Notes under the pieces: model-generated | Told to the model about the DNA's origin: nothing | The model's database searches: none | What the model saw: the letters and a program-made list of their open reading frames with translations, nothing else | Assembly: GCA_045602985.1 (NCBI GenBank) | Contig: JAZULH010000020.1 | Location: 11,610-75,609, forward strand | DNA: 64,000 nucleotides | From: Acutalibacteraceae bacterium | GTDB lineage: Bacteria; Bacillota; Clostridia; Oscillospirales; Acutalibacteraceae | Direction: 5' to 3' | Made by a program: the position numbers and the translations under genes | Part shown: positions 3,300 through 28,602 of the stretch, piece by piece | Layout of the letters: each line of letters starts with the position of its first letter | Position numbering within the stretch: the first letter of the stretch is position 1

Positions 3300-5617
3300 T
3301 GAGCAAGGTTACAATATTTATCAATGGTAAAGAATACTGTGCCGATACAGAAAAAACTCTTCTTGATAACATTCTCGACAGCGGTGTGTATCTGCCCCAC
3401 CTTTGCCACAACAAAGAGCTGGAAAGCTACGGCGGATGCGGTTTGTGCCTTGTTGAGCTTGAAGGCAGTCGCAAGCCGTTGAGGGCTTGCTCGCTTAACG
3501 TAAGCGAGGGTATGAGGGTTACAACCTCCACACCTGAGCTGGAAAAAAGCAGACGCGCAACTCTTGCACTCATAATGTCAGACCACGGCGGTGACTGTAA
3601 GGCGCCTTGCTTTATGGCTTGCCCCACACACCAGGATGTGCAGGGCTATGTGGGTCTTATTGCCAACGGCAGGGTTCAGGAGGCACTTGAGCTTATAAAA
3701 CAGGATAATCCGTTGCCTGCATCCATAGGCAGGGTCTGTCCTCATCCTTGTGAAGAAAAGTGCCGCAGAAAGCATCTTGAGGGCGCAGTTTCTATATGTG
3801 CGCTCAAGCGTTTTGCCGCGGATTCAAATGTTGATTATGTGCCCGATTGCGAGGCACTAAACGGCAAAAAAATTGCTGTAGCAGGTGCAGGACCTGCAGG
3901 CCTTTCGTGTGCATATTTTCTTGCACGCAAAGGATACAGTGTTGATGTTTTTGAGGCGCAGGAAAAAGGCGGAGGTATGCTCCGTTACGGCATACCTGCA
4001 TACAGACTTCCTGAAGCCGTCCTTGATAAAGAAATTGAATGTATAGAAAAAATGGGTGTTAAATTCCACTATTCACAAAAAATGGGCAGGGATTTTACAA
4101 TAAGCTCCCTTAAAAGCAGCTATGATGCTGTTTTTGTTGCTACAGGTGCCTGGCGTTCTGTGAGCCTTGGCTGTCCCGGCGATGATGCACAGGGTGTTGT
4201 CGGCGGTATTGATATGCTTTACAGAGCTGCAAAGGGCGAAACCTTTACACTCGGTAAAAGGGTGTGTGTTGTAGGTGGTGGTAATACAGCTATTGATGCA
4301 GTTCGCACATCTGTAAGGCTTGGGGCTGAAAGTGTTACCCTTATATACAGACGCACGGAGAAGGAGATGCCTGCAGAGATTGAAGAAATACGTGATGCTA
4401 AGGCAGAGGGTGTTCAATTCCGTTTCCTTGCAGCTCCTGTTGAGGTTGTAACACAGAATGGCAGGGTAACCGGCATAAAGGTTCAAAATATGGCACTCGG
4501 TGAACCTGACTCAAGCGGCAGGTGTACACCTGTGCCCATTGAGGGCAGTACAGAGGTTATTCCCTGTGATACCGTTATTTCTGCAATAGGGCAGAGGGTT
4601 GCAGGGGAGGATATAGACCTTGTGGAGCTTACCCGTAAATCAACCATAGCTGTTGATGAATTGACATATATGACATCAGTAGACGGCGTTTTTGCTGCAG
4701 GCGATGTTATAAACAAGGGGCCTGATATTGCTGTCAAAGCGATTGCAGGTGGTAAGTATGCTGCTCGTTCAATTGATTGTTACATTAAGGGTATTCAGGT
4801 TCCTGCACAGCTGCCGGATTACTCTGTGAACAAGGCATTTGACCCATCATCGTTACAGGGTACAGGTTTTGTTGGCAGGAACGAACAGGTTATGGCAGAG
4901 CCTTGTGAAAGAAAAGGCGATTTTCGTGAGGTTGCAAGCACATTTACAGAGCAACAGGCCTTAAGTGAGGCGTCCCGCTGTCTTGAGTGCGGTTGTATGA
5001 GCGTTTATTCCTGTGTGCTTTTGCCCTTAATGCAGAGCTACGATGCTTTATCTGTATCCTTTAAGGGTAAGGTAAGGCAGTATGCCAAGGATAAAAGTCA
5101 TCCGTTTATAATCAGGGATAACAACAAGTGTATACTTTGCGGTCAATGTGTAAGGGCATGTAAGGAGATTTCCGGTACAGAGAATCTTGGGCTTCTGGGC
5201 AGGGGATTCGGAACAGTGCCTGCAAGTGCCTTCGAGTTACCCCTTAATGACAGCAAGTGTATATCCTGCGGAGCCTGTGTAAATGTTTGTCCTACAGGTG
5301 CTCTGGTTGCGGTTTCACCTGCAATTAAAAATCCTCCGCTTCCCTTTGAGGAAGAAAGCTATACCTGCAGACTTTGTGAAAATGCCTGCGGTTTTACACG
5401 ACATATGGTACACGGAAGAACCATAGCAATGATACCGCAAAGATTAGACGAAAGCTGTTCTTTGGGCGTATTTTTACCTGTTGTCAAGGATAACGCTGAA
5501 GGTGCTTTAAGTGCAGATAAAAAGGATTTGATGAAGAAAAAGCTGTGCGGAGATTTGGGAAAATATACAGGCAACGATGTGACAGAGCTTTCATTTGATG
5601 AATTGGTTGTACTTTGA
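3299..5617 (+). CDS. Fusion protein: NuoG/HydA-type N-terminal 2Fe-2S domain, GltD/NfnB-like FAD/NAD(P)H oxidoreductase, and C-terminal 4Fe-4S ferredoxin module (StnC-like)
   Basis: N-terminus has CHNKELESYGGCGLCLVE...AC. The GltD signature CPHPCEEKCRR is present. Two dinucleotide folds are seen: AVAGAGPAGLSCAY and VVGGGNTAIDA. The C-terminus has CILCGQCVRAC and CISCGACVNVCP. No H-cluster or molybdopterin motifs are present. TAATG overlap with the upstream gene. Confidence 0.85.
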   Translation: MSKVTIFINGKEYCADTEKTLLDNILDSGVYLPHLCHNKELESYGGCGLCLVELEGSRKPLRACSLNVSEGMRVTTSTPELEKSRRATLALIMSDHGGDCKAPCFMACPTHQDVQGYVGLIANGRVQEALELIKQDNPLPASIGRVCPHPCEEKCRRKHLEGAVSICALKRFAADSNVDYVPDCEALNGKKIAVAGAGPAGLSCAYFLARKGYSVDVFEAQEKGGGMLRYGIPAYRLPEAVLDKEIECIEKMGVKFHYSQKMGRDFTISSLKSSYDAVFVATGAWRSVSLGCPGDDAQGVVGGIDMLYRAAKGETFTLGKRVCVVGGGNTAIDAVRTSVRLGAESVTLIYRRTEKEMPAEIEEIRDAKAEGVQFRFLAAPVEVVTQNGRVTGIKVQNMALGEPDSSGRCTPVPIEGSTEVIPCDTVISAIGQRVAGEDIDLVELTRKSTIAVDELTYMTSVDGVFAAGDVINKGPDIAVKAIAGGKYAARSIDCYIKGIQVPAQLPDYSVNKAFDPSSLQGTGFVGRNEQVMAEPCERKGDFREVASTFTEQQALSEASRCLECGCMSVYSCVLLPLMQSYDALSVSFKGKVRQYAKDKSHPFIIRDNNKCILCGQCVRACKEISGTENLGLLGRGFGTVPASAFELPLNDSKCISCGACVNVCPTGALVAVSPAIKNPPLPFEEESYTCRLCENACGFTRHMVHGRTIAMIPQRLDESCSLGVFLPVVKDNAEGALSADKKDLMKKKLCGDLGKYTGNDVTELSFDELVVL

Positions 5618-5775: not shown

Positions 5776-6834
5776 ATGAAGAAAGCACTTGCGATTTTTC
5801 TTTCCGCGCTTCTCATCTGCATTATGATTGCACCGATGGGTGCCGCGGCAACAGGTCCGGCTCTCACAACCAAGGTTATCGAGGGCGAGTATTCAAAGTC
5901 AGCAAATGGTGTTGCGGCTGTTACAGCAACCACATTTACAATTGTTGTTACAGCTCCTCCGGTTGAGAACCTTACAGGTGTTAACCTTTACTTTGAGTAT
6001 GATCCCGCAATCCTCAAGGTTAAGAGTGCAGGCTTTGCGGCAGACACTGACGGAACAAAGTTTTTCTCAGGTCTTGAGGTTACAGGTCCTAAAGCTGGCG
6101 TTGACAATCAGTACGCTTTCGCTTGGATTCCCTCAGGCAGCGGTGTTTCAAAGGCAGAGGCAAGAGACCTTCTCTACATAACCTTCAATGTTCTTGATAC
6201 AACAAAGGCACAGACTCCTGTATACCTTTACATTGATGAGTTCCGTACAGATGATGCCTCAGCGGATAACGACATCACTTCAACAGTCCTTTTCAATAAC
6301 AATATAGTTAATTTCAACTATCCTGAAAATACTCCCCCTGCAGAAACTGCTCCCGTTATTAACGGCACTACAGCAGAGGGTGAGGGCGCAACAGCCGGCG
6401 ATATCAACGCTCTTCTTCAGGTTATCAGAGATTTACTTGCAGGTAACGGCGTTACATTTGCAGACTTCTCAGATGCAATTGCAAACGTTCTTGGTAATGC
6501 TGAAATTACAGATATCGTTGAACAGTTGGTTGACGGCGATATGAACATTGCAGATGCATTCGCAGATTTCCTTAAGTCAATTGGTCTTGACTTTGATTCA
6601 TTTGAAGATATTCTTAATAAGATTATTGAGTTTATTATGGGTCTCTTCAATAGTGACGATAGTGGTGAGGATGAAACGACAACTGCTCCTGCAGGTAACT
6701 CATCAACAACTGCAGCAGGTTCATCAAGCGGTTCTGTAAACACAGGCGATAAGGGTGTTGCTCTTGCCGCAACAGTTTGTGTAATCTCAACTGCAGCATT
6801 CGTTCTCACAAGAAAGAAAAAAGACATTATTTAA
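5776..6834 (+). CDS. Secreted, C-terminally anchored cohesin-domain-like surface protein
   Basis: Signal peptide MKKALAIFLSALLICIMIAPMGAAA. The ~150 aa beta-rich domain with LYFEYDPAILKVKS and ITFNVL motifs resembles cohesin modules. An acidic helical region and a Ser/Thr linker follow. The C-terminus is VNTGD, a hydrophobic helix, then RKKKD. Confidence 0.6.
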   Translation: MKKALAIFLSALLICIMIAPMGAAATGPALTTKVIEGEYSKSANGVAAVTATTFTIVVTAPPVENLTGVNLYFEYDPAILKVKSAGFAADTDGTKFFSGLEVTGPKAGVDNQYAFAWIPSGSGVSKAEARDLLYITFNVLDTTKAQTPVYLYIDEFRTDDASADNDITSTVLFNNNIVNFNYPENTPPAETAPVINGTTAEGEGATAGDINALLQVIRDLLAGNGVTFADFSDAIANVLGNAEITDIVEQLVDGDMNIADAFADFLKSIGLDFDSFEDILNKIIEFIMGLFNSDDSGEDETTTAPAGNSSTTAAGSSSGSVNTGDKGVALAATVCVISTAAFVLTRKKKDII

Positions 6835-10980: not shown

Positions 10981-11020
10981 AGAAAAATACAGGAGCACTT
11001 CGTGTTGAAGTGCTCCTGTA
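10981..11020 (-). terminator. Intrinsic terminator of the minus-strand glycyl-radical operon
   Basis: Perfect 14 bp stem tacaggagcacttc (10988-11001) pairs with gaagtgctcctgta (11007-11020). The minus strand then reads ATTTTTCT. Confidence 0.85.
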
Positions 11021-11031
11021 TTATGGTTTAA

Positions 11032-11682
11032 TTACAGGTTTTTAACATAGCGTACAACCTTTTTCGGAACCTTCAGGGTGTCAGTAACAGCATCCTTTCT
11101 GAAGATTATATCAAGGTAGAACATTTCATCGTGCTTGACAATCGCTTTTAGGAGTTTTACAAGCTTTTGGGCATACTCTTCATTACCCTCCTTAAGAGCA
11201 ACGATTAAGGAACCGATGTGCTCATATATTCTGTCATTCATCAGTCCTAAATTAGGTTCACCCAATGCATACCGCCATTCTTTTTCCAGTTCGTCCGAGT
11301 ATGTGAAATCATCACGCAGAATAAGTGATTTCAGCATTACGGAATGATTACCCTCGTTGATGGTGTTGTTAAGAGTGTACTTTTCGTAACAGGTATATGC
11401 TTTTACAAAATTTTCTTTATACAACTCGTACAATTGTCCGAGACAGTAATAAACCTTGGCTTTGTAATTTGAGTCGCTGACATCAAAGTAATGCTGTGTT
11501 GCATATATCAATATGGTTTCTGCAGCGGTTAAGTTCTCGTTATCGCCACGTTTCATAAGCTCTGTGGCAACATTTACAACTATTTCACACTTGTCTTCGT
11601 TAAAATAGTCCTTTAGTGCCTCAAAAAATCTGCCGTTGGTTTCTGCAGTCCAGAAGGGTTCCTTCAAAAGCTTTTCTATCAT
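11032..11682 (-). CDS. Hypothetical all-helical (TPR-like?) protein, last gene of the glycyl-radical operon
   Basis: 216 aa, separated by 3 nt from the upstream gene. The composition is helical-repeat-like (YYCLGQLYELY..AY.CYEKY). No catalytic motif recognised. Confidence 0.7.
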   Translation of the reverse strand: MIEKLLKEPFWTAETNGRFFEALKDYFNEDKCEIVVNVATELMKRGDNENLTAAETILIYATQHYFDVSDSNYKAKVYYCLGQLYELYKENFVKAYTCYEKYTLNNTINEGNHSVMLKSLILRDDFTYSDELEKEWRYALGEPNLGLMNDRIYEHIGSLIVALKEGNEEYAQKLVKLLKAIVKHDEMFYLDIIFRKDAVTDTLKVPKKVVRYVKNL

Positions 11683-11685
11683 AAA

Positions 11686-12744
11686 TCACACCTCCGGCGG
11701 AATGCAGGCTGCCAAGGTAAGATTCGTTTTTGATGTTACCTTGAATTTGTTGTTACAGGAATATGGCATAAAGAAATAATCGCCTTTTTTTAAGGCTTTT
11801 TCGTAATTTTCACCACAGAGTGTGCCGTTCCCCTCTGTTACAACATATACGCAAGGGGCTGCAAGGAGCTCTGTTTCACCATTATTTATAACATATCTTT
11901 CGACGCTGAAGCATGGGGTATCGTACCTGCTTATAAGGCTTTCCTTCTTGCATCCGTCGGTTTCGTATACAACAGACGGAATTTTTCTGCATTCATTTTC
12001 TACCCTTGAAAGATTGTAGGAGTAATCGAAAACAGAAAGGGCGGTTTCCTTATCAAGACCGATATACATCTCGTTATCGGAGAGCTTGTAATCACCGCAC
12101 CAACGCTCCGGCTGTATTGTAAAGTCGGTGGGCTCCTGAACCTCAAGGATGAGGCATCCGTAGCCGATTGCGTGTACCGCCCTTGCAGGGATGAAATATA
12201 CATCGCCGGGCTTTACCGGAATTTTATTAAGGAGCCTTTCCATGGCGGATTTGTCAGTTTCGCTGTCATTTACTGCTTTTTCAAAATCTTCAGGTGTAAC
12301 ATCATCTTTAAAGCCGAAATAAATACAAGCACCCTCACGTGCACCAAGCACAAGCCAGGACTCTGCTTTTCCGAATTCGGAATTAAAGTTTTTTCTTGAA
12401 AAGGCTTTGTCGGGGTGAGCCTGTACAGGCAATCTTATGGCAGAATCAAGCGCTTTTACAAGCACGTCAAGACCGTTTCTGTTGCCAAGCATTAACGCTT
12501 TTTCTTTAATCAACAATTCGTCAAAATGTATGGATGTTCCCTCGATTGTGGAAAGACCCTCGTATGGGTCTGTGCTCCCTTCGTTAAGTGCCTTTGTTGA
12601 AGAGCAAATCCACTCCTCGGGATAAAAACCGTCGGTGCTGTCATCACCAAAAAAATCAGAGAAAAGCTGACCGCCCAGATATACTCTGAAAACTCTGTTT
12701 TTTTCAAAGAAGACAGGATTGTTTGCTAATTTTACAGTATCCAT
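11686..12744 (-). CDS. Class I phosphomannose-isomerase-like cupin (sugar-phosphate aldose-ketose isomerase)
   Basis: Metal-ligand motifs of type I PMI are present: VQAHPDK, AESWLVL and RAVHAIG. Length is 352 aa. Confidence 0.75.
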   Translation of the reverse strand: MDTVKLANNPVFFEKNRVFRVYLGGQLFSDFFGDDSTDGFYPEEWICSSTKALNEGSTDPYEGLSTIEGTSIHFDELLIKEKALMLGNRNGLDVLVKALDSAIRLPVQAHPDKAFSRKNFNSEFGKAESWLVLGAREGACIYFGFKDDVTPEDFEKAVNDSETDKSAMERLLNKIPVKPGDVYFIPARAVHAIGYGCLILEVQEPTDFTIQPERWCGDYKLSDNEMYIGLDKETALSVFDYSYNLSRVENECRKIPSVVYETDGCKKESLISRYDTPCFSVERYVINNGETELLAAPCVYVVTEGNGTLCGENYEKALKKGDYFFMPYSCNNKFKVTSKTNLTLAACIPPEV

Positions 12745-12747
12745 AAT

Positions 12748-14109
12748 TCACCTCAAAAGTGCATCGCCTGATGCTTTAATATCGCTGAAAAAACCGCAGG
12801 CAGCACCGCTGAAAACACAGGCACCCACAGATGCCTCCTCAGAGTGCAGGGGGAGTTGTGCGGTTAAACCAAAGTCTTTTTCAAATATCTGTCGCCATAT
12901 ATGACTTTTGCGTAAACCGTTACCTGAACAAACAAGCTGTACAGGAGTGCCTGTAAGCATATTTTCAGCGGAGGAATACATTTCAAAAAGCTCTTTGGAA
13001 ACGCCCTTGAGTACACCGCAGATAAGGTGCTGTGGTGTGAAATTATCTGCACCGATATTCTCAATAAAGCCACGCTTTTCGGGGCTTTGACGAGTACCGC
13101 AGAATTCACAGCTTACTGTCAACGCATCCTTTAAATCAAAGACACCCTCTGACAATGAATCCATTTTCTCGTAAAGCTTGTGGGAATTACCGTCAAGCAT
13201 ATCTGCACATAATGTGAAAAAGCTTTTTAATATGGCATAAGCTCTGCCGCCGCAAAGGGATGAGCCGACAAAAATATAGTCACCATCAGTCAGTGGTCTA
13301 ACCTCACCGCAGGGAGGCGCAACAATACTTTTTGTAATAAATGAAACCTGACTGCCTGTGCCTACGTTTACAAGAACTGATGTTTCCGGCTCTGCAACAG
13401 AACCCAGGAAGCTTGCCTGATTGTCGCCTATGGCAATACTTACAGGTATGTTATCAGGTAAAAAGTCACATTTTGTTGTGCCTGCAACAGATGTATTACT
13501 TATAACCTTTGGTAAAAAGTCTTTGTCTATACCTGCGATTTCAAGTGCTTTTTCATCAAAGCAAAGATTTTTCAAATCAAAGAACCCCAGGCTTGCACCG
13601 TCACTTGCGTGTGTAACGGGTGAGGTGTTTGTAAGAAGTGCCACAAGATAATCGTGGATAGTGGTAAGCATTACGGCACTTTCAGGCACAAGTTTATTTT
13701 GGATGTTATAAAAATGTGTAGTAAGTCCGAAGCCTGTGGATGCCTTTATGCCTGTAATCCTCGTAAGATGTTGTGCATAAGTTTCATTATTGTCAAACAA
13801 TTCGTTGCCTCGTTCATCCTGCCAGATCATAAGTGGCGAGCAAGGTGCATTGTTTTTGTCTAGATACAGTATGCCGTGCATTTGTCCCGTAACACCGATT
13901 GCATCGGGAACAAGCTCTGCGGTTACATCGGCAACGGCTTTTTTTACTGTATCAATTATTTTTTGGGGATCCTGGAGCCTCTCAAAGCATTTACCCTCCA
14001 AGAAGCTGTCGTTTTTGAGTGTACAGCTTTTTATAACTGCTTTACTGTCAGTATCCAGCATTAAAGCGGTTACGGTGGTTGTACCTATATCTATACCTAA
14101 TATCTTCAT
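12748..14109 (-). CDS. FGGY-family carbohydrate kinase (sedoheptulokinase/ribulokinase-like)
   Basis: N-terminal ILGIDIGTTTV phosphate-1 motif. Also VTGQMHG and a later VNVGTGSQ ATPase-fold motif. Length is 453 aa. Confidence 0.85.
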   Translation of the reverse strand: MKILGIDIGTTTVTALMLDTDSKAVIKSCTLKNDSFLEGKCFERLQDPQKIIDTVKKAVADVTAELVPDAIGVTGQMHGILYLDKNNAPCSPLMIWQDERGNELFDNNETYAQHLTRITGIKASTGFGLTTHFYNIQNKLVPESAVMLTTIHDYLVALLTNTSPVTHASDGASLGFFDLKNLCFDEKALEIAGIDKDFLPKVISNTSVAGTTKCDFLPDNIPVSIAIGDNQASFLGSVAEPETSVLVNVGTGSQVSFITKSIVAPPCGEVRPLTDGDYIFVGSSLCGGRAYAILKSFFTLCADMLDGNSHKLYEKMDSLSEGVFDLKDALTVSCEFCGTRQSPEKRGFIENIGADNFTPQHLICGVLKGVSKELFEMYSSAENMLTGTPVQLVCSGNGLRKSHIWRQIFEKDFGLTAQLPLHSEEASVGACVFSGAACGFFSDIKASGDALLR

Positions 14110-14112
14110 AAC

Positions 14113-16479
14113 TCAGCACACAACTGCAGTAGATGCAGGATCAAGACGTCGGATAATATCCTGTTGAATTGCGGGTGAAAGGTCGAGGAAGTTTACGAAT
14201 GTGCCGTGAATACGCATAATATATACTCCGCTTGGGGCGTATTTCTTGGGCTCTGCAAGAACCTTTTTGAGAATTTCTGCAGTTGTTACGTTAACATAAA
14301 GGTAGAAGGGAGCAACATTTTCGTTAAGCTCGTTAAAGAAAAGGGGCTTCATAACCTTATCGCGGAACTCAACACCCTTGCCCTCGTAATCATCACTTGA
14401 AAAATATTTCGGGTCAATGCCGAAGTGGGATGCATAGCCACCACACATTTTGTTGAATGGTAATTTCATAAGACTGAGTGTGCGGAAGCCCAAACCGTTC
14501 TGCGCCTCGCCGTAAAGAGGGTCAACACCGTAATTAAGCATATCACGGGATTTTCTGCCACAGGGCAGAGCGCCTACCCAATAGCCGTACAGAAGGTGGG
14601 TCGAGGGGGTTGAAAAGTCGGGACGGAAGTTATTGCCCAGATAGTTTTTCTGTGCACGTACCATATCTGCAATTTTGTTTGTAAGTTCTGCAGTTTCAGC
14701 ATCAACCAATTCATTGTTGTTGCCAAACTTGGGAGCTGAAAGAAGATATTCACGAAGTTCCTCGTAGCCTTCAAAGTTGTTTTTTAGGGCGTCAAGGAGC
14801 ATTTGTGCATCCTGGGGACGTTCTTCAATCAATTTGTCAATAGCAATAAATGAATCGGCAACAACGCTTGTGCCGTGAATAAGGCATCCGCTGCCATTGT
14901 ACTTTGTTCCCTGGTGGGTAATATTACGGGTATCATATCCTGACTCAATACCACCCATAACAGTACTCAGGAAGGGTACGGGCAGGTGGGAAATTGCTTT
15001 TGATGCACCGTTTGCGGCCTTCACCATTTCATCGCAGAAATACTGTGCATTTTTGTAAAAGCGTTCTCTTATATTTTTGAGTAAATCAAGTGCATCTGTG
15101 CTGTCACATACTGTGCCGATTTCATTACCTGTGATAAGTGATTTACCGTCATTGAGTGTAAGCTCAAGAATTTTGCCAAGATTGAACCAACTGTTTGTTG
15201 TGTTGGCGTTGTCCTTGCCCATAATTAGGGGCTCCTGACAGCCTGCAATTGAGGTGTCCTGAATATCATCAATATCAACACCTGCTGCTGAAAGCACCTT
15301 AAAAAGAGAATCATCGTTAAAGAATGATGGTGTAAGGCAACCTGGTGTGAAAAGGAATCTGCCCAACTCCTCATAAAGCTTTTGTGGAGTGTTTTTGTGG
15401 AGCTTGACTGAAAGTATGGGCTGCGGAAGATTCATATCGTAATATGCATCTAAAAGGGCATAGGTAGAGTCATTTGTAAGGTCATTGCCATCCTTATCTC
15501 TGCCGCTTACAATAAGGTTTTGTGAGATAGCCCAGCTTCTGTCACCAACATTAAAAAATACAAGAAAATGCTTGAAAAGGGAGGCTGTTTCTTCCCTTGA
15601 CAAACCATCGTTGGCTCTGTAAGGCTCGAAAATTCGGTCAGCATTACCAACTGAAAAGGCAAAGGGGTTAGGCGCCTGCTCCAGGCACATAATCTGCCAT
15701 AAAAGGATAAAGCTCTGCAATGCCTCGTAAAGTGTTTCAGCACCGCTTTCGGGCACCTTTGCAAGAGTTTGTGAAAGGAGCTTTAACTGTTCTTTTCTTT
15801 CACTCTCTGCAGTGAGTAATTTTTCATCTGCAATAGCCTTGTATCTGCTTGCAAGGATGATTACACATTCAAGTGCAATTTTCATTGCTTCGTAATTCTC
15901 ATTTTGCTCGGGGGTGGCGTTTTTCTGCTTTTCCTCGATATCAAGAATCATCTTTTTTACACCGTGCTTAAGAGCATATCTCATATCGGGAATAAGATGA
16001 CCCGTAACCTGCTCAATAAAATATGCAACCTCGCCTGTGTGCTTTTCGCAGGCCTTGTAAACCTCTGAAAGTGATTTTACATAGGGTGTTTCTTTATCAA
16101 GATTTCTTAAAGCATCAATACGCTCCTGGGGGAATTCCTCGGTAGCATCAATATCATCGTATACAGCGGTGGGATCGCAATAGCCTGCAAAGGTTTCTAC
16201 ACGGAAGGAGGGGTTAATAAGTGCATAGCTGCGGGCAAAGGCATCACGCTGAGTGCCTGCAAAAACAGCGTTATCACTTATTGATAAGGGTAAAACCTTA
16301 ATTGCCTGACGGAATTTTTCTGCAGCCTTGAGCATCGGTGAAAGCTCGCTGTATTGTGCATCGTGTTTCTGCTCGGTTTCTTTAATGATAAACCAGCCTT
16401 CAAGGTGGTTTATGGCACGCTCTTCTTTAAAAAGGGCGTTAGCCATTTCTGTGGTTTTTTGCGGGTCGAATTTATACAT
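14113..16479 (-). CDS. Glycyl radical enzyme of the eliminase/dehydratase class (C-x-E Cys loop); substrate unknown
   Basis: The C-terminal glycyl-radical fingerprint is VYIMRIHGTFVNF (Gly codon at 14203-14205). The Cys loop is SIAGCQEPLIMG (Cys codon at 15238-15240). Size (788 aa) and adjacency to an activase fit. Start is placed at MYKFD (16479) behind GAGGTGA. Confidence 0.9.
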   Translation of the reverse strand: MYKFDPQKTTEMANALFKEERAINHLEGWFIIKETEQKHDAQYSELSPMLKAAEKFRQAIKVLPLSISDNAVFAGTQRDAFARSYALINPSFRVETFAGYCDPTAVYDDIDATEEFPQERIDALRNLDKETPYVKSLSEVYKACEKHTGEVAYFIEQVTGHLIPDMRYALKHGVKKMILDIEEKQKNATPEQNENYEAMKIALECVIILASRYKAIADEKLLTAESERKEQLKLLSQTLAKVPESGAETLYEALQSFILLWQIMCLEQAPNPFAFSVGNADRIFEPYRANDGLSREETASLFKHFLVFFNVGDRSWAISQNLIVSGRDKDGNDLTNDSTYALLDAYYDMNLPQPILSVKLHKNTPQKLYEELGRFLFTPGCLTPSFFNDDSLFKVLSAAGVDIDDIQDTSIAGCQEPLIMGKDNANTTNSWFNLGKILELTLNDGKSLITGNEIGTVCDSTDALDLLKNIRERFYKNAQYFCDEMVKAANGASKAISHLPVPFLSTVMGGIESGYDTRNITHQGTKYNGSGCLIHGTSVVADSFIAIDKLIEERPQDAQMLLDALKNNFEGYEELREYLLSAPKFGNNNELVDAETAELTNKIADMVRAQKNYLGNNFRPDFSTPSTHLLYGYWVGALPCGRKSRDMLNYGVDPLYGEAQNGLGFRTLSLMKLPFNKMCGGYASHFGIDPKYFSSDDYEGKGVEFRDKVMKPLFFNELNENVAPFYLYVNVTTAEILKKVLAEPKKYAPSGVYIMRIHGTFVNFLDLSPAIQQDIIRRLDPASTAVVC

Positions 16480-16489
16480 AAAAATCACC

Positions 16490-17236
16490 TCAGGTGTTAA
16501 TAAGTTTCAGATTTCTGTTTTTTATTTCACAGGCCAAAAGGGTTACATCTTCAGCTGTTGTAAAGCCCTCGGTAACTGTATAATCCATATTGAGCTTTTT
16601 GTATTTTTCTTTACCGAATTCGTGATAGGTGAGTATTTCAAAGGCAATATTTTCTCCTGTGCCTGCGTTTTGCAGCTCTGTGAAAAATTCACCGAATTCA
16701 AAAGCGTTCTCTTCACCACAATTAAAGTAGTGAACTAATGGTACACGCACTAAAAGGGGCTTGCCTGTGCGAGCTCTGTGAATAAGATTATTTTTGATAA
16801 TTTCAATATCTGCGCCTAAAATTTCCCGGCATTTTTCGGATGATGGGGTTTTGAAATCGGCTATCATATAGTCAATCGTGCTGAATAATTCTTCGCAGTC
16901 CGTAAGTGATGCATTTGTTTCAATACAGGTGTGAATACCGTTTTTTTGCAATTCCTTTATAAGAGCAAGGACAGACTCCCTTTGACAAGTGACCTCGCCA
17001 CCTGTAAGGGTAACACCGCCACCGTCAATGAAAATCATTTTTACAGAAGCGGCCTCCTTGACAATATCTGCAATTGCCATCTTTTGGGTATTGTCGGTGA
17101 GGGTTAAGCCCTCGGGGTTAGAGCACCAGGGACATTTGAGGTTGCACCCGGCAAGGTGGTAAACAAGGCGGTTCCCGGGCCCGTCCTGAGAATAGTTGAA
17201 GCCCTTCTGGAATATGTAAATATGACTATTGCCCAT
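16490..17236 (-). CDS. Glycyl-radical enzyme activating enzyme (radical SAM, PflA-like short form)
   Basis: Contains CNLKCPWCSNPE (CX3CX2C) and the GGVTLTGGE SAM-binding motif. Start is placed at MGNSH (17236). Confidence 0.9.
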   Translation of the reverse strand: MGNSHIYIFQKGFNYSQDGPGNRLVYHLAGCNLKCPWCSNPEGLTLTDNTQKMAIADIVKEAASVKMIFIDGGGVTLTGGEVTCQRESVLALIKELQKNGIHTCIETNASLTDCEELFSTIDYMIADFKTPSSEKCREILGADIEIIKNNLIHRARTGKPLLVRVPLVHYFNCGEENAFEFGEFFTELQNAGTGENIAFEILTYHEFGKEKYKKLNMDYTVTEGFTTAEDVTLLACEIKNRNLKLINT

Positions 17237-17270
17237 TAAATCCACCACCCTTCAGATTAATTAATTATAT

Positions 17271-17299
17271 ATTATAACACTAATATAATCATATTTCAA
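17271..17299 (-). promoter_or_regulatory. Near-consensus SigA promoter of the glycyl-radical operon
   Basis: The minus strand reads TTGAAA (17299-17294), 17 nt spacer, TATAAT (17276-17271), about 30 nt upstream of the activase start. Confidence 0.7.
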
Positions 17300-19919: not shown

Positions 19920-19948
19920 AAATTATATCCTTGTTCAGGGGTGAATTT

Positions 19949-20782
19949 ATGAAATTCGATTTATTTGAAAAAGCAAAAGAAAATATAATTGTGGTTGCTC
20001 ACAGGGGTGCTTGTGGGGGTAATATTCCATGTAACACTCTTACTGCCTATGAAATTGCCCTTAAGCAGGGTGCGGATATGATAGAGGTTGATGTGAGTCG
20101 CAGCCGTGATGATAAGCTGTTTATATTCCACCCGGGTATGGAGGAAGACCACTTTAATAAAAAGATGAATTTCAAGCGTATGAAATTTGCGAAAATTTCA
20201 AGAGAGCGTTATGTCAACTTTGACAATTCTGTTACCCAGTTCGGTGTGGCAACCTTTGATGATTTTCTTGAACAGTTCAAGGGCAGATGCTTTATAAATA
20301 TTGACAAATTCTGGGATAATCCCGAAATGATTTATGAAGCAATAAAGCGCCATAATATGCTTGAACAGGTGCTTGTTAAAAGCAAGCTTTCGCCCGATAT
20401 CATCAAAACAGTTGAAGATTTCTGCCCTGATGTTGCATTTATGCCCATTGTAAGGGACGAGCATCCGTACCACGGGGAGCTTATGAAGCGTAATATCAAT
20501 TACATCGGTGCAGAGGTGCTTTTTGAGAATGAGAGCTCATATATGGCAAGCCCTGAGTTTATTGATATGATGCACCGTGACGGTAAATTGGTTTGGGTTA
20601 ACTCCATAATTTATGATTACAAGGAACAGCTTGCAGGTGGTCACAGTGATGATACCGCTTTTACCGTGAACGAGGATTACGGTTGGGGCTGGCTTGTTGA
20701 CAGGGGCTATGATATGATACAAACCGATTGGGCTTTAATGCTTATAAACTACCTTAAAGAAAGCGGTAAATATTATAAATAA
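19949..20782 (+). CDS. Glycerophosphodiester phosphodiesterase (GDPD) family protein
   Basis: VVAHRG...NTL.AYE.A...GADMIEVDV....D..L.IFH matches GDPD catalytic motifs. Start is at MKFDLF (19949) behind AGGGGTGA. Confidence 0.8.
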   Translation: MKFDLFEKAKENIIVVAHRGACGGNIPCNTLTAYEIALKQGADMIEVDVSRSRDDKLFIFHPGMEEDHFNKKMNFKRMKFAKISRERYVNFDNSVTQFGVATFDDFLEQFKGRCFINIDKFWDNPEMIYEAIKRHNMLEQVLVKSKLSPDIIKTVEDFCPDVAFMPIVRDEHPYHGELMKRNINYIGAEVLFENESSYMASPEFIDMMHRDGKLVWVNSIIYDYKEQLAGGHSDDTAFTVNEDYGWGWLVDRGYDMIQTDWALMLINYLKESGKYYK

Positions 20783-20902: not shown

Positions 20903-21022
20903 AAGGTCTTTAAGTCGGTACAGAGAGATCGGCAAGATGAATGTTAAATATATTGGGTACAGGTAAAACTGTATCAATGTTTTTGTGTGTTCAGCCTTGC
21001 CATACGCAAGGCTTGTTTTTTT
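20903..21022 (+). promoter_or_regulatory. PyrR-type transcription attenuator (binding loop plus terminator) in the pyrC leader
   Basis: CUUUAAGUCGGUACAGAGAGAUCGGC resembles the PyrR binding-loop core (..UUUAA..GUCCAGAGAGGCU..). Downstream, the hairpin agccttgc (20993-21000) pairs with gcaaggct (21006-21013), followed by TGTTTTTTT. Confidence 0.6.
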
Positions 21023-21047
21023 ATATTCAATACGGAAAGTGATTATT

Positions 21048-22277
21048 ATGACACAGCAACTCAAAGCCAAAACAATAAAGTTTGCCTCAGCAGGTATGGG
21101 TAATGTGCCTTTTTATAAAGGCGTTGCGGAGCATTTGTCTGCTGATGATAGCCTTTCTGTTTTCAATTCTGACAGATATATTATTTTTCCCGGTTTTTGC
21201 GATGTGCATGTGCATTTTCGTGAGCCGGGTTTTTCTTATAAAGAGACTATTGAAACAGGGTGTAAAGCATCTGCCCGCGGCGGATACACTGCAGTATGTA
21301 CCATGCCTAATCTGGACCCCGTTCCGGATTGTGCCCAGCATCTTAAAATACAGACCGATTTAATAAAGGCAGATGCCTGCATAAATGTTTATCCCTATGC
21401 TTCGATTACTGTCGGGCAGAAGGGTGAAGAGCTTTCGGATATGGAGTCTATGGCAGATTGTGCATTTGCTTTTTCTGATGATGGCAAGGGTGTGCAGAGT
21501 GACGATATGATGAGGGCGGCAATGCTCAAGGCAAAATCATTGGGTAAAATGATTGTTGCTCATTGTGAGGATAATTCCCTGCTGCGCGGCGGCTACATCC
21601 ACGATGGTGTGTATGCTAAGGAGCACGGTCATAAGGGTATATGCAGTGAGAGCGAATGGAAGCCAATAGCAAGAGATATTGAGCTTGTTAAGGAAACGGG
21701 CTGCAGCTACCATGTGTGCCACATATCAACAAAGGAGAGTGTGGATATTATCAGGAAGGCAAAAGCAGATGGTGTGGATATCACCTGTGAAACAGGTCCT
21801 CACTACCTGGTGCTTGATGATAATGACCTTGAAGAAAGCGGTGCCTTTAAAATGAATCCGCCACTTCGCTCTGAAGAGGACAGACTTGCACTTATTGAGG
21901 GTATTAAGGACGGCACTATTGATATGATTGCAACGGACCACGCTCCCCACTCAAAGGAGGAGAAGAGCAAGGGTCTCCAAGGTAGTGCGTTCGGTATTGT
22001 GGGTATTGAAACTGCCTTCCAGGTGATGTATACAAACCTTGTAAAAACAGGTGTTATAACACTTGAAAAGCTTGTCGAGCTGATGGCGGTGAATCCCCGT
22101 AAAAGGTTTAATATCCCACTTGGTGTTGATTACACGGTATGGGATTTGAAAAAGAATACAACAGTTAACCCGTCAGATTTCCTGTCAAAGGGCAAAGCAA
22201 CTCCCTTTGAGGATATGCCTGTGCAGGGTGAGTGTGTGTTGACCGTGTGTAACGGTAAAGTAGTTTATAAATTGTAA
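21048..22277 (+). CDS. pyrC: Dihydroorotase
   Basis: Contains DVHVHFREPG (metal His pair), later CHIS, and ATDHAPH. Start is at MTQQLK (21048), downstream of the attenuator terminator. Confidence 0.9.
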   Translation: MTQQLKAKTIKFASAGMGNVPFYKGVAEHLSADDSLSVFNSDRYIIFPGFCDVHVHFREPGFSYKETIETGCKASARGGYTAVCTMPNLDPVPDCAQHLKIQTDLIKADACINVYPYASITVGQKGEELSDMESMADCAFAFSDDGKGVQSDDMMRAAMLKAKSLGKMIVAHCEDNSLLRGGYIHDGVYAKEHGHKGICSESEWKPIARDIELVKETGCSYHVCHISTKESVDIIRKAKADGVDITCETGPHYLVLDDNDLEESGAFKMNPPLRSEEDRLALIEGIKDGTIDMIATDHAPHSKEEKSKGLQGSAFGIVGIETAFQVMYTNLVKTGVITLEKLVELMAVNPRKRFNIPLGVDYTVWDLKKNTTVNPSDFLSKGKATPFEDMPVQGECVLTVCNGKVVYKL

Positions 22278-22320
22278 TTTTTAGAATTTTGAATTATATG
22301 TTTTTCAGGAGGTTTCTCGT

Positions 22321-25300
22321 ATGGGAAAGAGAACGGATATCAAGAAGGTTTTGATTATAGGCTCAGGTCCTATTGTTATCGGTCAGGCGGCAGAGTTTGA
22401 CTATGCAGGCACTCAGGCTTGCCTTGCACTTAAGGAGGAAGGCTATGAGGTTATTCTCGCAAACTCCAACCCTGCCACAATTATGACAGATACTACCATT
22501 GCGGATAAGGTTTATATGGAGCCCCTCACTTTGGAGTATGTTGCGAAAATTCTCAGATATGAGCGTCCCGATGCGATTGTTCCCGGCATCGGCGGTCAGA
22601 CAGGTCTTAATCTTGCTATGCAGCTGGAGAAAAAGGGTATACTTAAGGAGTGCGGCGTAGAGCTTCTGGGTACAAGCAGCGAAAGTATTGAGCGTGCCGA
22701 GGACCGCGAGCTTTTCAAGGAGCTTTGCCAGTCAATAGGTGAGCCTACAATCCCTTCAGAAATTACATACAGTCTTGAAGAGGCGCTTGCTGCAGCGGAC
22801 AGAATCGGTTACCCCGTAGTTGTTCGTCCTGCATTTACTTTGGGTGGTACAGGTGGCGGATTTGCCGCAGACAGAAATGAGCTTATTGAGATTGGTACAA
22901 ATGCCTTCAAGCTTTCACCCGTTCATCAGGCGCTTATTGAAAAGAGTGTTAAAGGCTACAAGGAAATTGAGTTTGAGGTTATGCGCGATTCCAACGACCA
23001 CGCCATTACCATCTGCGGTATGGAGAATATTGACCCTGTCGGTGTGCATACAGGTGACTCTCTTGTTGTGGCTCCCATCCTTACACTTAATGACCACGAC
23101 CTCAAGATGCTCAATGACAGTGCTATCAAAATTATCCGTGAGCTTAAAATTGAGGGCGGATGTAATGTTCAGTTTGCCCTTAATCCTGAGACAAGCGAAT
23201 ATTTCCTTATAGAGGTTAACCCGAGAGTTTCCCGTTCATCTGCCCTGGCATCCAAGGCAAGCGGTTATCCTATTGCAAGAGTTACTGCAAAAATTGCGGT
23301 AGGTATGGCTCTTGAGGATATTACAATTGCCAATACAACAGCGGCATTTGAACCCCGTCTTGATTATATTGTTGCAAAGCTTCCCCGTTTCCCGTTTGAT
23401 AAGTTTGCATCTGCAGCAAACACCTTGGGTACACAGATGAAGGCAACAGGCGAGGTTATGGGTATCGGCTCAAACCTTGAAGAGTGCCTGCTTAAATCTG
23501 TTCGTTCACTTGAAACAGGTGCATACCACTTCCACCTTCCCAAGTTTGACCCTATGACAGAGGATGAGCTTGTTGCTTATCTTGCTGAGTTCAAGGATGA
23601 TACAATTTTTGCTGTAACAGAGCTTATTCGTCGCGGTATGTCACTTGAAAAGCTTCACGATATTACAAAAATCACAACATATTTCCTTGAGGCATTCAAG
23701 AGAATTGTTGATATGGAAAATAAGCTTAAGGCAAATGCAGGTAATAAAGAGGTTCTCCTTGAAGCTAAAAAGATGGGCTTTGGTGACAAGTTTATTGCCA
23801 AGTTCTGGGGACAGAATGAAATTGATGTTTACAATCTCCGTAAGCAGGAAAATATGTTCCCTGTATTCCGTATGGTTGACACTTGCCATACAAACGCATA
23901 TATTCCTTACTTCTATTCATCCTACACAGACAAAAATGACTCTGTTCTTACAGATAAAAAGAAAATTGTTGTTATCGGTGCAGGTCCTATCCGTATAGGT
24001 CAGGGTGTTGAGTTTGACTACTCCACAGTTCACGCTGTTACAACCATTAAGAATTCCGGTTACGAGGCTATTATTATCAACAATAACCCCGAAACTGTTT
24101 CAACAGACTACACAACTGCAGACAAGCTCTATTTTGAACCCCTAACACCCGAGGATGTTATGAATATTATTGAGTTTGAAAAGCCTGACGGAGTTATTAC
24201 CTCACTGGGCGGTCAGACTGCTATAAATCTTGCCGAACCCCTTATGAAACGCGGCGTTAAGATTATCGGTACGGATTGTGATGCAATTGAGCGTGCCGAA
24301 AACAGAGACAGCTTTGAGAAAATACTTACAAACCTTGGTATTCCTCAGCCCAAGGGCAAGGCAGTTACAAAAATTGAAGACGGCATAAATGCTGCTAAGG
24401 AAATCGGTTATCCTGTACTCGTAAGACCAAGCTTCGTGCTGGGTGGCAGAGCAATGCAGATTGTTGCTAACGAGGAGCAGCTCAGACACTACCTCAAAAC
24501 CGCTGTTGAGATTGATGAGGACAAGCCTGTGCTTGTTGATAAATATATTCAGGGTAAAGAGGTTGAGGTTGATGCTATCTGCGACGGCAGAGATGTATTT
24601 ATTCCCGGTATTATGGAGCTTGTTGAAAAGACAGGTGTTCATTCGGGCGACTCCATAAGCGTTTATCCCTCATTCAGTATTTCTGATAAGGTTAAGGGTA
24701 TTATCCTTCAGTATGCAAAGAAGCTGGGTCTTGGCATCGGCATTATCGGTCTTTACAATATTCAGTTTATTGTTGATGAAAAAGATGATGTTTACATTAT
24801 TGAGGTTAACCCCCGTTCATCAAGAACAGTTCCCTTCCTTTCAAAGGCAACCGGCTACTCCCTTGCAGATATCGCAACTGAGGTTATTATGGGAAAAACT
24901 CTTAAGGAGCAGGGTATATTTGATATTTATCCCCAGGAGAAGAATCGTTGGTATGTAAAAGTACCCGTATTCTCCTTCAACAAAATACGCGGTCTTGACG
25001 CTTACCTTTCACCTGAAATGAAATCAACAGGTGAGGCTATCGGTTACGACAACAAGCTTAACCGCGCTCTTTATAAGGCGCTTCAGGCATCGGGTATGCA
25101 TTTACAGAACTACGGTACCGTTTTTGCTACAATTGCAGATAAGGATAAGGATGAGGCACTTTCACTTATCCGCCGTTTCTATAACCTGGGCTTTAACATC
25201 CAGGCAACTGAGGGAACAGCCAAGTTCTTCAAGGAGAACGGAATCCGTACTCACGCGCTTAAGAAAATCAGCGACGGTAGTGATGAGATACCTGAGGCTT

Positions 25301-25494
25301 TGCGCCAGGGTCACATTGCTTATGTTATAAATACAAAGGATATTGGTTCAACAGGTTCAGCCAACGACGGTCTTGAAATTCGCCGATATGCTATTGAAAA
25401 TAACGTAAATATCTTTACCGCCCTTGATACCGTTCGTGTTCTTCTTGATGCACTTGAAGAGTCTACAATTACAATTTCAACAATTGATGCTTAA
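22321..25494 (+). CDS. carB: Carbamoyl-phosphate synthase large subunit
   Basis: 1057 aa with duplicated ATP-grasp halves (GSGPIVIGQAAEFDYAG and GAGPIRIGQGVEFDY) and a C-terminal MGS-like domain. Confidence 0.95.
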   Translation: MGKRTDIKKVLIIGSGPIVIGQAAEFDYAGTQACLALKEEGYEVILANSNPATIMTDTTIADKVYMEPLTLEYVAKILRYERPDAIVPGIGGQTGLNLAMQLEKKGILKECGVELLGTSSESIERAEDRELFKELCQSIGEPTIPSEITYSLEEALAAADRIGYPVVVRPAFTLGGTGGGFAADRNELIEIGTNAFKLSPVHQALIEKSVKGYKEIEFEVMRDSNDHAITICGMENIDPVGVHTGDSLVVAPILTLNDHDLKMLNDSAIKIIRELKIEGGCNVQFALNPETSEYFLIEVNPRVSRSSALASKASGYPIARVTAKIAVGMALEDITIANTTAAFEPRLDYIVAKLPRFPFDKFASAANTLGTQMKATGEVMGIGSNLEECLLKSVRSLETGAYHFHLPKFDPMTEDELVAYLAEFKDDTIFAVTELIRRGMSLEKLHDITKITTYFLEAFKRIVDMENKLKANAGNKEVLLEAKKMGFGDKFIAKFWGQNEIDVYNLRKQENMFPVFRMVDTCHTNAYIPYFYSSYTDKNDSVLTDKKKIVVIGAGPIRIGQGVEFDYSTVHAVTTIKNSGYEAIIINNNPETVSTDYTTADKLYFEPLTPEDVMNIIEFEKPDGVITSLGGQTAINLAEPLMKRGVKIIGTDCDAIERAENRDSFEKILTNLGIPQPKGKAVTKIEDGINAAKEIGYPVLVRPSFVLGGRAMQIVANEEQLRHYLKTAVEIDEDKPVLVDKYIQGKEVEVDAICDGRDVFIPGIMELVEKTGVHSGDSISVYPSFSISDKVKGIILQYAKKLGLGIGIIGLYNIQFIVDEKDDVYIIEVNPRSSRTVPFLSKATGYSLADIATEVIMGKTLKEQGIFDIYPQEKNRWYVKVPVFSFNKIRGLDAYLSPEMKSTGEAIGYDNKLNRALYKALQASGMHLQNYGTVFATIADKDKDEALSLIRRFYNLGFNIQATEGTAKFFKENGIRTHALKKISDGSDEIPEALRQGHIAYVINTKDIGSTGSANDGLEIRRYAIENNVNIFTALDTVRVLLDALEESTITISTIDA

Positions 25495-25558
25495 TTGAAT
25501 ATGTGGGTGAGGCTGCTTCTGCAATCGGTAGTAGCACACTCGCGCTGATGAGGTTACT

Positions 25559-27893: not shown

Positions 27894-27930
27894 TTATAAC
27901 GAATGCTGAAAATATAAAGGAGATTTATTT

Positions 27931-28584: not shown

Positions 28585-28602
28585 TTTTAGGAAGTGAATT
28601 GA

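Follow-up and report, generated by a model that had tools for sequence, protein, structure and literature searches.

A glycyl radical enzyme encoded with its own FGGY kinase points to an undescribed route of anaerobic sugar or sugar-alcohol breakdown in gut bacteria

We analysed a 64,000-nt stretch of DNA from an Acutalibacteraceae bacterium (contig JAZULH010000020.1 of assembly GCA_045602985.1; hereafter the window, with positions counted from its first letter), in which five open reading frames (ORFs) lie in a row on the minus strand at 11032-17236. They encode a radical S-adenosylmethionine (SAM) activase, a glycyl radical enzyme (GRE), an FGGY-family carbohydrate kinase, a class I phosphomannose isomerase (PMI)-like cupin and an all-helical fifth protein. 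With a probability of roughly 0.6, we read this operon as an anaerobic, radical-dependent catabolic module that would perform a kinase-coupled C-O elimination on a small neutral sugar-like compound, C5 being favoured over C6. What is observed directly is which genes are there, what motifs they carry and that they are inherited together. As a whole, the evidence speaks for a module, catabolic or for salvage, made up of a private FGGY kinase and a GRE of the CxE type (a single catalytic cysteine followed by glutamate), pointing to a route of anaerobic sugar or sugar-alcohol breakdown in gut bacteria that is so far undescribed. We classify the system as a new GRE subfamily with a new pathway architecture. 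A full-text literature search returned no description of this GRE: glycyl radical and FGGY together gave nothing, and glycyl radical with polyol, ribulose, sugar kinase or anhydroglucitol gave no paper describing it.

The GRE matches Pfam PF02901 (PFL-like, after pyruvate formate-lyase; E 1.9e-112), while PF01228 gives no match on its clade, and it starts at an ATG at 16479 that is also the start in its public-database homologues. Its catalytic set is intact (H161, C414-Q-E416 and G759 in RIHG, residues 756-759), and the motifs GCQEP and R[IV]HG are kept in 157/157 full-length orthologues. Unlike the Cys-Cys of PFL, its cysteine loop holds a lone cysteine and then Glu. Because such a single-Cys CxE loop is the mark of 1,2-eliminase and isomerase GREs in a 2026 review of the family (PMC13450708), we placed the enzyme with these two groups. 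Its best NCBIfam model was the PFL2-3 subfamily, at 252 bits against a cut-off of 678, and it scored far under the equivalog cut-offs of HypD (209/1100 bits), HpfG (186/1000), CutC (164/1050) and PRK09983 (172/1109). Identity to the glycerol and propanediol dehydratases, HypD, CutC, PflD, YbiW, IslA and HpsG was 19-24%. The top PDB sequence matches, at E values of about 1e-60 to 1e-55, were glycerol dehydratase and Archaeoglobus fulgidus PFL2; the latter is the best of them (2f3o; E 6e-60, 206 bits) and is likewise functionally unassigned, and, unlike the bacterial window GRE to which it is 23% identical, it is archaeal and has no known link to an FGGY kinase.

An AlphaFold2 (AF2) model of the GRE, built on a 32-sequence alignment, reached a pLDDT of 91 and a pTM of 0.92 and has the ten-stranded barrel fold of the superfamily. 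When it was compared with solved structures by Foldseek, the 50 best-matching GRE chains gave template modelling (TM) scores of 0.79-0.86 at 18-24% identity; they comprise eliminases, isomerases, decarboxylases and X-succinate synthases, none of which the model prefers. The glycerol and 1,2-propanediol dehydratases (1r8w, 5i2g, 9rco) were among the best folds (TM 0.85-0.86), jointly with HypD, HplG and HpyG. We rejected the idea that the enzyme is a GRE already known: identity stayed at about 20-24% throughout, and no equivalog emerged, in Pfam, NCBIfam, the PDB sequence search and Foldseek. By its sequence, the GRE belongs to an uncharacterised subfamily, as the initial annotation of this DNA had proposed when it described an eliminase-type GRE outside the known pathways; that annotation had also named an identity above 60% to a characterised enzyme as what would speak against it, and the values found lie far below. 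Family-specific motifs of the enzyme are NPFAFS, AISQN, SGCLIHG and STPSTH. The third of these, in the form SGC[LM][IV]HG (Cys532/His535; residues 530-536, nt ~14872-14892), occurs in 156/157 orthologues and is lacking in PflD and YbiW.

Alignment with glycerol dehydratase pairs C414 with C433, and H161 and E416 with the catalytic H164 and E435. Differences are found at the positions of H281, S282, Y339, D447 and Y640, which we take to be the substrate residues of glycerol dehydratase, Y339 and Y640 being the bulky ones: here they are F, A, S, T and S. Because both tyrosines are replaced by serine and H281, S282 and D447 by F, A and T, a larger polyhydroxylated substrate would fit and a C3 diol would be disfavoured.

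The kinase matches Pfam PF00370 (FGGY_N; E 3.8e-33) and its D.GT[TS] motif is present in 69/69 orthologues. It scored under every NCBIfam cut-off for the characterised specificities XylB, GlpK, GntK, LsrK, FucK, RhaB and AraB, the best model being XylB (135 bits vs 380; GlpK, 93 vs 590). Compared directly, it reached at most 74 bits with E. coli XylB, GlpK, LsrK, FucK, RhaB and LyxK (at most 50 with FucK or RhaB) and 171-441 bits with the GRE-linked FGGY kinases of Clostridia, Treponema and Armatimonadota. The GRE-linked kinases form a separate FGGY subfamily that was inherited along with the GRE.

The activase carries the Pfam domains Radical_SAM (E 4.9e-15) and Fer4_12 and scored 152.9 bits with the NCBIfam model PFLE_PFLC, under the cut-off of 174. 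It has one CX3CX2C motif (C30/C34/C37) and lacks the ferredoxin-like auxiliary-cluster insert, GRE-activase models aligning to it in two stretches only, with the insert skipped. Its start is most likely the ATG at 17236, which is preceded by a GGTGG ribosome-binding site and gives 248 aa; the ORF list had a GTG at 17248. Fer4 domains do occur in the activases of more divergent members of the family, at L083, L093 and the P0396 locus.

The PMI-like protein is a cupin of the MPI type that matches PDB 1qwr (E 1.5e-20), with the motifs QAHPD at 108, GKAESW at 125 and VHAIG at 190. Q108, H110, E128 and H191, together with K126, align with the metal ligands and catalytic lysine of this class I PMI. 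The Q.HP and GK.E.W motifs, the Gln/His/Glu/His ligands and the lysine are invariant in 88/88 orthologues, in agreement with the initial annotation, which had called the ligands intact. Since its score against TIGR00218 (manA) was 76.9 bits, below the equivalog cut-off of 116.2, we do not take its substrate to be mannose-6-phosphate. For the fifth protein, 181 homologues were found, none with a Pfam domain, and its family matches were two NCBIfam models at E >= 0.0035, far under cut-off. Its AF2 model (pLDDT 89) is all-helical with 11 helices, and its best Foldseek matches in the PDB were tetratricopeptide repeat (TPR) proteins, weakly so (E >= 0.026). Because the similarity is to generic TPR proteins and no family was above cut-off, we assigned it no enzymatic role; judging from the model, it is possibly a clade-specific helical-repeat accessory or scaffold.

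We then followed the GRE through other genomes. Among 1.84 billion representative proteins, identity dropped from 62 to 55 and 43%, with a few sequences at 30-38% and then generic GREs aligned over the C-terminal 620 residues only. One of the representatives, P0249 (746 aa; 38% identical to the window GRE in this search and 36% in a MAFFT alignment), has Asp in place of the Cys-loop cysteine (VVGDELP) and a glycine loop changed to RVPGA, and is probably, on these substitutions, a catalytically dead GRE paralogue. In a species-representative genome collection, 397 stretches encode a relative of the GRE; the best 80 of them, with GREs 65-95% identical, were studied, and these come mostly from metagenome-assembled genomes (MAGs) of Acutalibacteraceae and other Oscillospirales recovered from digesters and from the guts of ruminants, camelids and chickens. 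A metagenome scan gave at least 573 further stretches, of which 80 with GREs 59-95% identical to the window GRE were kept, human-gut contigs included. Neighbours were counted in loci with at least 1.6 kb on either side of the GRE, namely 67 genome and 45 metagenome loci (112 in all, from Oscillospirales, Treponema and other anaerobes; GRE 59-95% identical).

In these loci, the activase adjoins the GRE without exception (67/67 and 45/45, genome and metagenome respectively), and a GRE-type FGGY kinase does so in 66/67 and 38/45. A xylulokinase-like FGGY is the sole adjacent kinase in none of the 67 genome loci and in 6 of the 45 metagenome loci, which suggests that the pathway needs a pentulokinase-type activity. 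A kinase of one type or the other is thereby adjacent in 110/112 loci. The PMI-like gene is adjacent in 60/67 and 21/45 (81/112), and the fifth gene in 54/67 and 4/45. The linkage of GRE, kinase and isomerase, which the initial annotation had put forward for checking across orthologues, is thus conserved. The GRE-FGGY pairing also holds where GRE identity has fallen to 42-49%, as metagenome contigs and a MAG of the Armatimonadota show. From these adjacency counts and from the kinase subfamily, the conserved core is therefore activase, GRE and dedicated FGGY kinase; the PMI-like gene is a lineage-dependent member, a frequent fourth one in Clostridia, and the fifth gene is clade-specific. In the P0474 clade (L086-L088; 67% GRE identity), the operon activase-GRE-FGGY-PMI runs on into a cyclophilin-type peptidyl-prolyl isomerase, followed by a weakly SecB-like protein and a family-less 476-aa protein, in place of the TPR-like fifth gene.

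The five genes are one transcription unit between a promoter-like site and a terminator (Table 1). ORFs and domain searches bore out the five minus-strand genes and their domains as initially annotated, with small corrections to the coordinates. With ATG starts, the gaps in operon order are 10, 3, 3 and 3 nt, so that spacings of 1-3 nt hold for the last three and not for the activase-GRE gap; GAGGTG-type ribosome-binding sites precede the GRE, PMI-like and fifth genes. The near-consensus promoter is present as described, with an extended -10 TG, and precedes the activase ATG by about 35 nt; its call is a positional inference, since the window holds 20 such sites against 20.3 expected in shuffled sequence, that is, no enrichment. 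The terminator, given before as a perfect 14-bp one at 10981-11020, is real and stronger than that, with a hairpin dG of -26.4 kcal/mol and UUUUUCU following the longer stem. The GC content of the operon, 42.6%, is that of the window. The same gene order was found again in dozens of species-level genomes, so the five-gene arrangement is not a chance one. The window flanks are housekeeping in nature (Tex, membrane proteins with domains of unknown function (DUFs), a GDPD phosphodiesterase and a pyrimidine-biosynthesis block), and no transporter or regulator gene is present among the operon's neighbours in the window.

Table 1. Features of the operon in the window, and sulfhydrylase genes at three related loci
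Feature	Length	Position	Strand	Basis
GRE-activating enzyme (radical SAM)	248 aa	16490-17236	minus	Pfam, NCBIfam, motif, start codon
Glycyl radical enzyme (GRE)	788 aa	14113-16479	minus	Pfam PFL-like, AF2 model, motifs
FGGY-family carbohydrate kinase	453 aa	12748-14109	minus	Pfam FGGY_N
Class-I PMI-like cupin	352 aa	11686-12744	minus	PDB 1qwr match, metal-ligand motifs
All-helical TPR-like fifth protein	216 aa	11032-11682	minus	AF2 model, homologue search
Sigma-70-type promoter-like site, TTGAAA, 17 nt spacer, TG-n-TATAAT		17271-17299	minus	11/12 positions
Intrinsic terminator, perfect 16-bp stem, 5-nt loop, U-run		~10986-11022	minus	RNA fold
O-acetylhomoserine sulfhydrylase genes		L068 6094-7371; L070 13730-15013; L072 13683-15005		TIGR01326

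Clues to the substrate come from the variable neighbours of related GREs. The statement that the cluster lacks a transporter is true of the window; relatives at 61-66% GRE identity, by contrast, have CUT2 ABC transporters and ROK or GntR regulators within the same operon. In Pullichristensenella (66% GRE identity), a ROK regulator and activase-GRE-FGGY are followed by a complete CUT2 ABC transporter, and in Treponema (62%) the order is VOC protein, CUT2 ABC transporter, FGGY, activase and GRE. The Treponema binding protein (L092 1242-2237, on a metagenome contig) is 42.5% identical to AauA of enterohaemorrhagic E. coli, which binds alpha-D-ribulofuranose with a Kd of ~2 uM (PDB 9I1M), and keeps all six published contact residues of AauA (K37, W43, E118, H167, E196 and S223); it also matches the RhaS model weakly. 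Other CUT2 binding proteins (that of Pullichristensenella at L078 17669-18790, and L174) gave generic ribose-binding-protein-like matches only. Recurrent neighbours include GntR/LacI-type and ROK regulators, aldose 1-epimerase, Zn-dependent polyol-type dehydrogenases, mannitol-dehydrogenase-family enzymes, xylulokinase-like FGGYs, a class II aldolase with a PfkB kinase, xylose-isomerase-like TIM barrels and EamA transporters. In some loci a glycoside hydrolase (GH) of family GH51, an alpha-L-arabinofuranosidase, lies directly 3' of the kinase; GH127, GH172 (DUF2961) and GH32 also occur. A C5 substrate is favoured because of the D-ribulose/ribose-type binding proteins, the swap to a xylulokinase-like kinase, the polyol dehydrogenases and the arabinofuranosidases of these relatives. 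Judging from relatives at 59-66% GRE identity, the substrate would most probably be a C5 ketose, aldose or pentitol, and less probably a C6 analogue.

Enzymes of C-C cleavage were sought by tblastn in 176 loci with E. coli LsrF, LsrG, DeoC, FsaA/B, AraD, FucA, RhaD, SgbH/U and others. The matches were sporadic (DeoC-like 2/176, FSA-like, for fructose-6-phosphate aldolase, 2/176, AraD 1/176); homologues of LsrF, LsrG, FucA and RhaD were found in 0/176, and no aldolase or thiolase was consistently linked to the GRE in these loci. The FSA-like gene, at 12455-13120 (minus strand) in L134 and L136, lies two genes downstream of the GRE on a human-gut contig and is 36-37% identical to E. coli FsaA/FsaB.

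By analogy, the nearest functional precedent would be anhydroglycolysis by the GRE isomerases YbiW and PflD of E. coli and Streptococcus (Ma et al. 2024, as related in PMC13450708 and PMC12441222), sugar-phosphate GREs that the initial list of known GRE pathways had left out. As outlined in PMC13450708, this pathway proceeds by phosphorylation through the phosphotransferase system (PTS), ring-opening by the GRE to 1-deoxyfructose-6-phosphate and cleavage by the aldolase FSA; in the E. coli comparison loci, fsaA and fsaB adjoin ybiW and pflD. As there, a PFL-like CxE GRE is encoded in the window beside its activase and a sugar-phosphorylating enzyme, with no microcompartment, and presumably a ketyl radical would cleave a C-O bond of a sugar-like substrate to give a deoxy-ketose phosphate. 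The differences are several. The window GRE is only 20% identical to YbiW and 24% to PflD, which speaks against orthology; it carries the four family motifs given above, and its activase is short, without the ferredoxin insert. Phosphorylation is by a dedicated FGGY kinase and not by a PTS, a PMI-like isomerase is present, and neither PTS nor FSA is encoded in the window; in the related loci, neither FSA nor GldA is linked, save for 2/176. The glycerol and 1,2-propanediol dehydratases, for their part, share with the window GRE the catalytic Cys and Glu, the equivalent of His161 and the glycine loop, and differ from it by an identity of 22-24%, by the replaced substrate contacts, including the two Tyr to Ser changes, and by their setting: the window GRE is obligately linked to a sugar kinase, and its operon lacks genes for 1,3-propanediol dehydrogenase, aldehyde dehydrogenase and a microcompartment. 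Taken on its sequence features, the window system would be neither a glycerol/propanediol dehydratase system nor any C-N or C-S lyase equivalog. A logic in common, in which a C5 furanose-type sugar is handled by a CUT2 transporter, an FGGY kinase and a sugar-phosphate isomerase, is seen in the D-ribulose (Rbl) locus of Citrobacter and in the Lsr pathway of autoinducer 2 (AI-2), and the AauA homologue of the Treponema relative adds to the likeness with Rbl. Unlike these two, the GRE loci have a radical enzyme; RblK, LsrK, SIS and LsrG are of other subfamilies or folds, and LsrF and LsrG homologues are absent, as said, from the 176 loci.

The sequence of events that we propose follows GRE enzymology for the radical steps. 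The activase would use SAM and a single [4Fe-4S] cluster to generate a radical on G759, and this would give rise to a thiyl radical on C414 that takes a hydrogen off a carbinol carbon in the substrate. E416 would deprotonate the hydroxyl, and the resulting ketyl radical would expel the leaving group of the beta C-O bond, either water or the oxygen of a ring or ether, after which C414 would give the hydrogen back to yield a deoxy-keto sugar. Going by gene context, the dedicated FGGY kinase would phosphorylate the sugar before the GRE acts, as the PTS does for YbiW and PflD, or just after; the PMI-like metal enzyme would catalyse an ene-diol isomerisation, of the aldose-ketose type, of the phosphorylated substrate or product; and final C-C cleavage into central metabolites would fall to enzymes encoded elsewhere. 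The fifth protein would be a non-enzymatic helical-repeat accessory limited to its clade. The initial proposal, radical dehydration or C-X elimination of a polyol, deoxy-sugar or anhydro-sugar with phosphorylation and isomerisation, is supported by the low identity to characterised GREs and by the conserved linkage, and is still the best reading. A bolder form of it, which we regard as speculative and rather doubtful, would be a new GRE reaction class: radical fermentation of pentoses, pentuloses or pentitols that needs neither transketolase nor phosphoketolase and carries no net NADH burden. A pentitol 5-phosphate, for example, would be dehydrated to 2-deoxyribose 5-phosphate, which would be split into glyceraldehyde-3-phosphate and acetaldehyde; or a pentulose 5-phosphate would be converted to a 1-deoxy-diketopentose phosphate, then rearranged by the PMI-like ene-diol isomerase. 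Formation of 1-deoxy-diketopentose phosphate is the chemistry of phospho-AI-2.

Four other explanations were weighed. The operon could encode a kinase-dependent variant of anhydroglycolysis, the FGGY kinase phosphorylating 1,5-anhydroglucitol, 1,5-anhydromannitol or a C5 anhydro-alditol and the GRE opening the ring to a 1-deoxy-ketose phosphate. YbiW and PflD, the only GREs known to act on sugar phosphates, have CxE chemistry in common with the window GRE; the FSA-like gene of L134 and L136 recalls fsaA and fsaB beside ybiW and pflD, and three distant relatives have adjacent oxidoreductases of GFO_IDH_MocA, the family to which anhydrofructose reductase belongs. We consider this variant unlikely, since the GRE is no nearer to YbiW and PflD than to other GREs, FSA is missing from 174/176 loci, a PMI-type isomerase would have no role on 1-deoxyfructose-6-phosphate or anhydro-alditols, and the binding proteins of relatives resemble pentose or pentulose binders. 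It is quite unlikely that the enzyme is a radical C-S lyase of a thio- or sulfo-sugar (5-methylthioribose/-ribulose or sulfoquinovose/sulfofructose), with the isomerase forming the ketose, the FGGY kinase phosphorylating C1 and the GRE eliminating methanethiol or sulfite next to a carbinol in the manner of IslA and HpsG; the sulfonate clamp of IslA, IseG and HpsG consists of two Arg and one Gln. C-S cleaving GREs are well established, a 6-sulfonate could conceivably pass as a phosphate mimic for the PMI-like enzyme, and housekeeping surroundings with no transporter in the window would fit salvage of an endogenous by-product. In three loci, moreover (L068, L070 and L072; Table 1), the PMI-like gene is missing and its place, straight after the FGGY gene, is taken by an O-acetylhomoserine sulfhydrylase (TIGR01326, 599 bits, above cut-off), an enzyme that can fix sulfide or methanethiol, which makes a link to sulfur or methanethiol metabolism possible. 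However, this MetY linkage is limited to those three loci of one subclade, and among ~190 loci examined we saw no 5'-methylthioadenosine (MTA) nucleosidase, sulfoquinovosidase or sulfite exporter. The sulfoquinovose idea was itself rejected: a 2026 sulfoquinovose review mentions neither cupin or FGGY enzymes nor any GRE with the sugar itself as its substrate, and a sulfoquinovosidase or sulfite exporter was seen in none of the loci.

A third explanation is an ordinary B12-independent dehydratase of glycerol or 1,2-diols that, paired with a glycerol kinase, would serve balanced glycerol or diol fermentation. It would suit the place of glycerol and propanediol dehydratase among the best hits by sequence and by fold, the equivalence of H161 and E416 to the catalytic H164 and E435, and the glycerophosphodiester phosphodiesterase genes found close by in three contexts. 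Against this stand the identity of only 24%, the five changed substrate positions, the score of the kinase far under the GlpK cut-off and the want of the accompanying dehydrogenase and microcompartment genes in the operon; nor would this account for the PMI-like gene, the sugar ABC transporters, the mutarotase and the glycosidases. We hold it to be very improbable. The slightest chance of all goes to a fucose/rhamnose-type 6-deoxy-sugar pathway, in which a cupin isomerase and an FGGY ketose-1-kinase would be joined by the GRE as a propanediol dehydratase working on a lactaldehyde-derived diol. FucK and RhaB are indeed FGGY kinases, genes resembling GH106 rhamnosidases and GHL6/fucosidases are found near some relatives, and the Treponema binding protein has its weak RhaS-model match; yet class II aldolase and lactaldehyde reductase are not linked (FucA/RhaD, 0/176 loci), the kinase is remote from E. 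coli FucK and RhaB, and the GRE is as far from propanediol dehydratase as from other GREs.

Several points also weigh against the reading that we prefer, a kinase-coupled C-O elimination on a sugar-like compound that is probably a C5 one. Its downstream steps are unaccounted for, because elimination by a GRE always leaves a deoxy carbon and no aldolase or thiolase is consistently linked. The role of a PMI-type isomerase beside an enzyme that forms a deoxy carbon is not obvious. The case for C5 leans mainly on one binding protein, from the locus of a 62%-identical homologue, and on generic pentose-type neighbours, and other contexts hint otherwise, namely GH32 with SIS and RPE-like genes, a sulfatase, GH116/GH38 and the O-acetylhomoserine sulfhydrylase. 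Finally, given housekeeping flanks without transporter or regulator in the window, the substrate may be an endogenous one that is salvaged.

Further observations concern the surroundings of the operon. The first ORFs of the block at 20985-29523 of the window encode a dihydroorotase-like protein and one of 1057 aa. Upstream of the operon, 21-35 related loci keep a block of homologous ORFs, and the L004 homologue confirmed the dihydroorotase call. The block looks like a pyrimidine-biosynthesis cluster, which places the operon in a housekeeping region. At 1545-5617 and 5776-6834, a NuoF-like protein (Complex1_51K/NADH_4Fe-4S) adjoins a GltD-like protein (Pyr_redox_2/Fer4_20), the pair being possibly an electron-bifurcating or NADH:ferredoxin-type oxidoreductase; a protein with a weak cohesin domain lies beside it. 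A GDPD-family glycerophosphodiester phosphodiesterase fused to DUF4996 is encoded at 19931-20782 (plus strand), and at L072 15028-15798 and L086 3038-3697 a GDPD gene is likewise a few kb or less away from the GRE operon. We dropped GDPD as a conserved operon neighbour: it was seen in three differing contexts and not among close relatives.

Several of the gut-microbial reactions with the greatest consequences are due to GREs, among them the formation of trimethylamine, H2S and p-cresol and the use of hydroxyproline. The family described here, of roughly 3,500 members, is abundant (397 genome stretches and at least 573 metagenome stretches) and phylogenetically broad. Because the GRE is co-inherited with a kinase, often with an isomerase and sometimes with a transporter that has a D-ribulose-like binder, a modest set of sugars and sugar phosphates would suffice for a direct test of its substrate. 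Should such a test succeed, anhydroglycolysis would be joined by a second radical sugar pathway, which could also account for the use, by strict anaerobes of the rumen, the hindgut and the human colon, of a sugar or sugar alcohol poorly served by conventional routes. If true, a radical pentose route would be widespread in the Clostridia, Treponema and other anaerobes of the herbivore and human gut.

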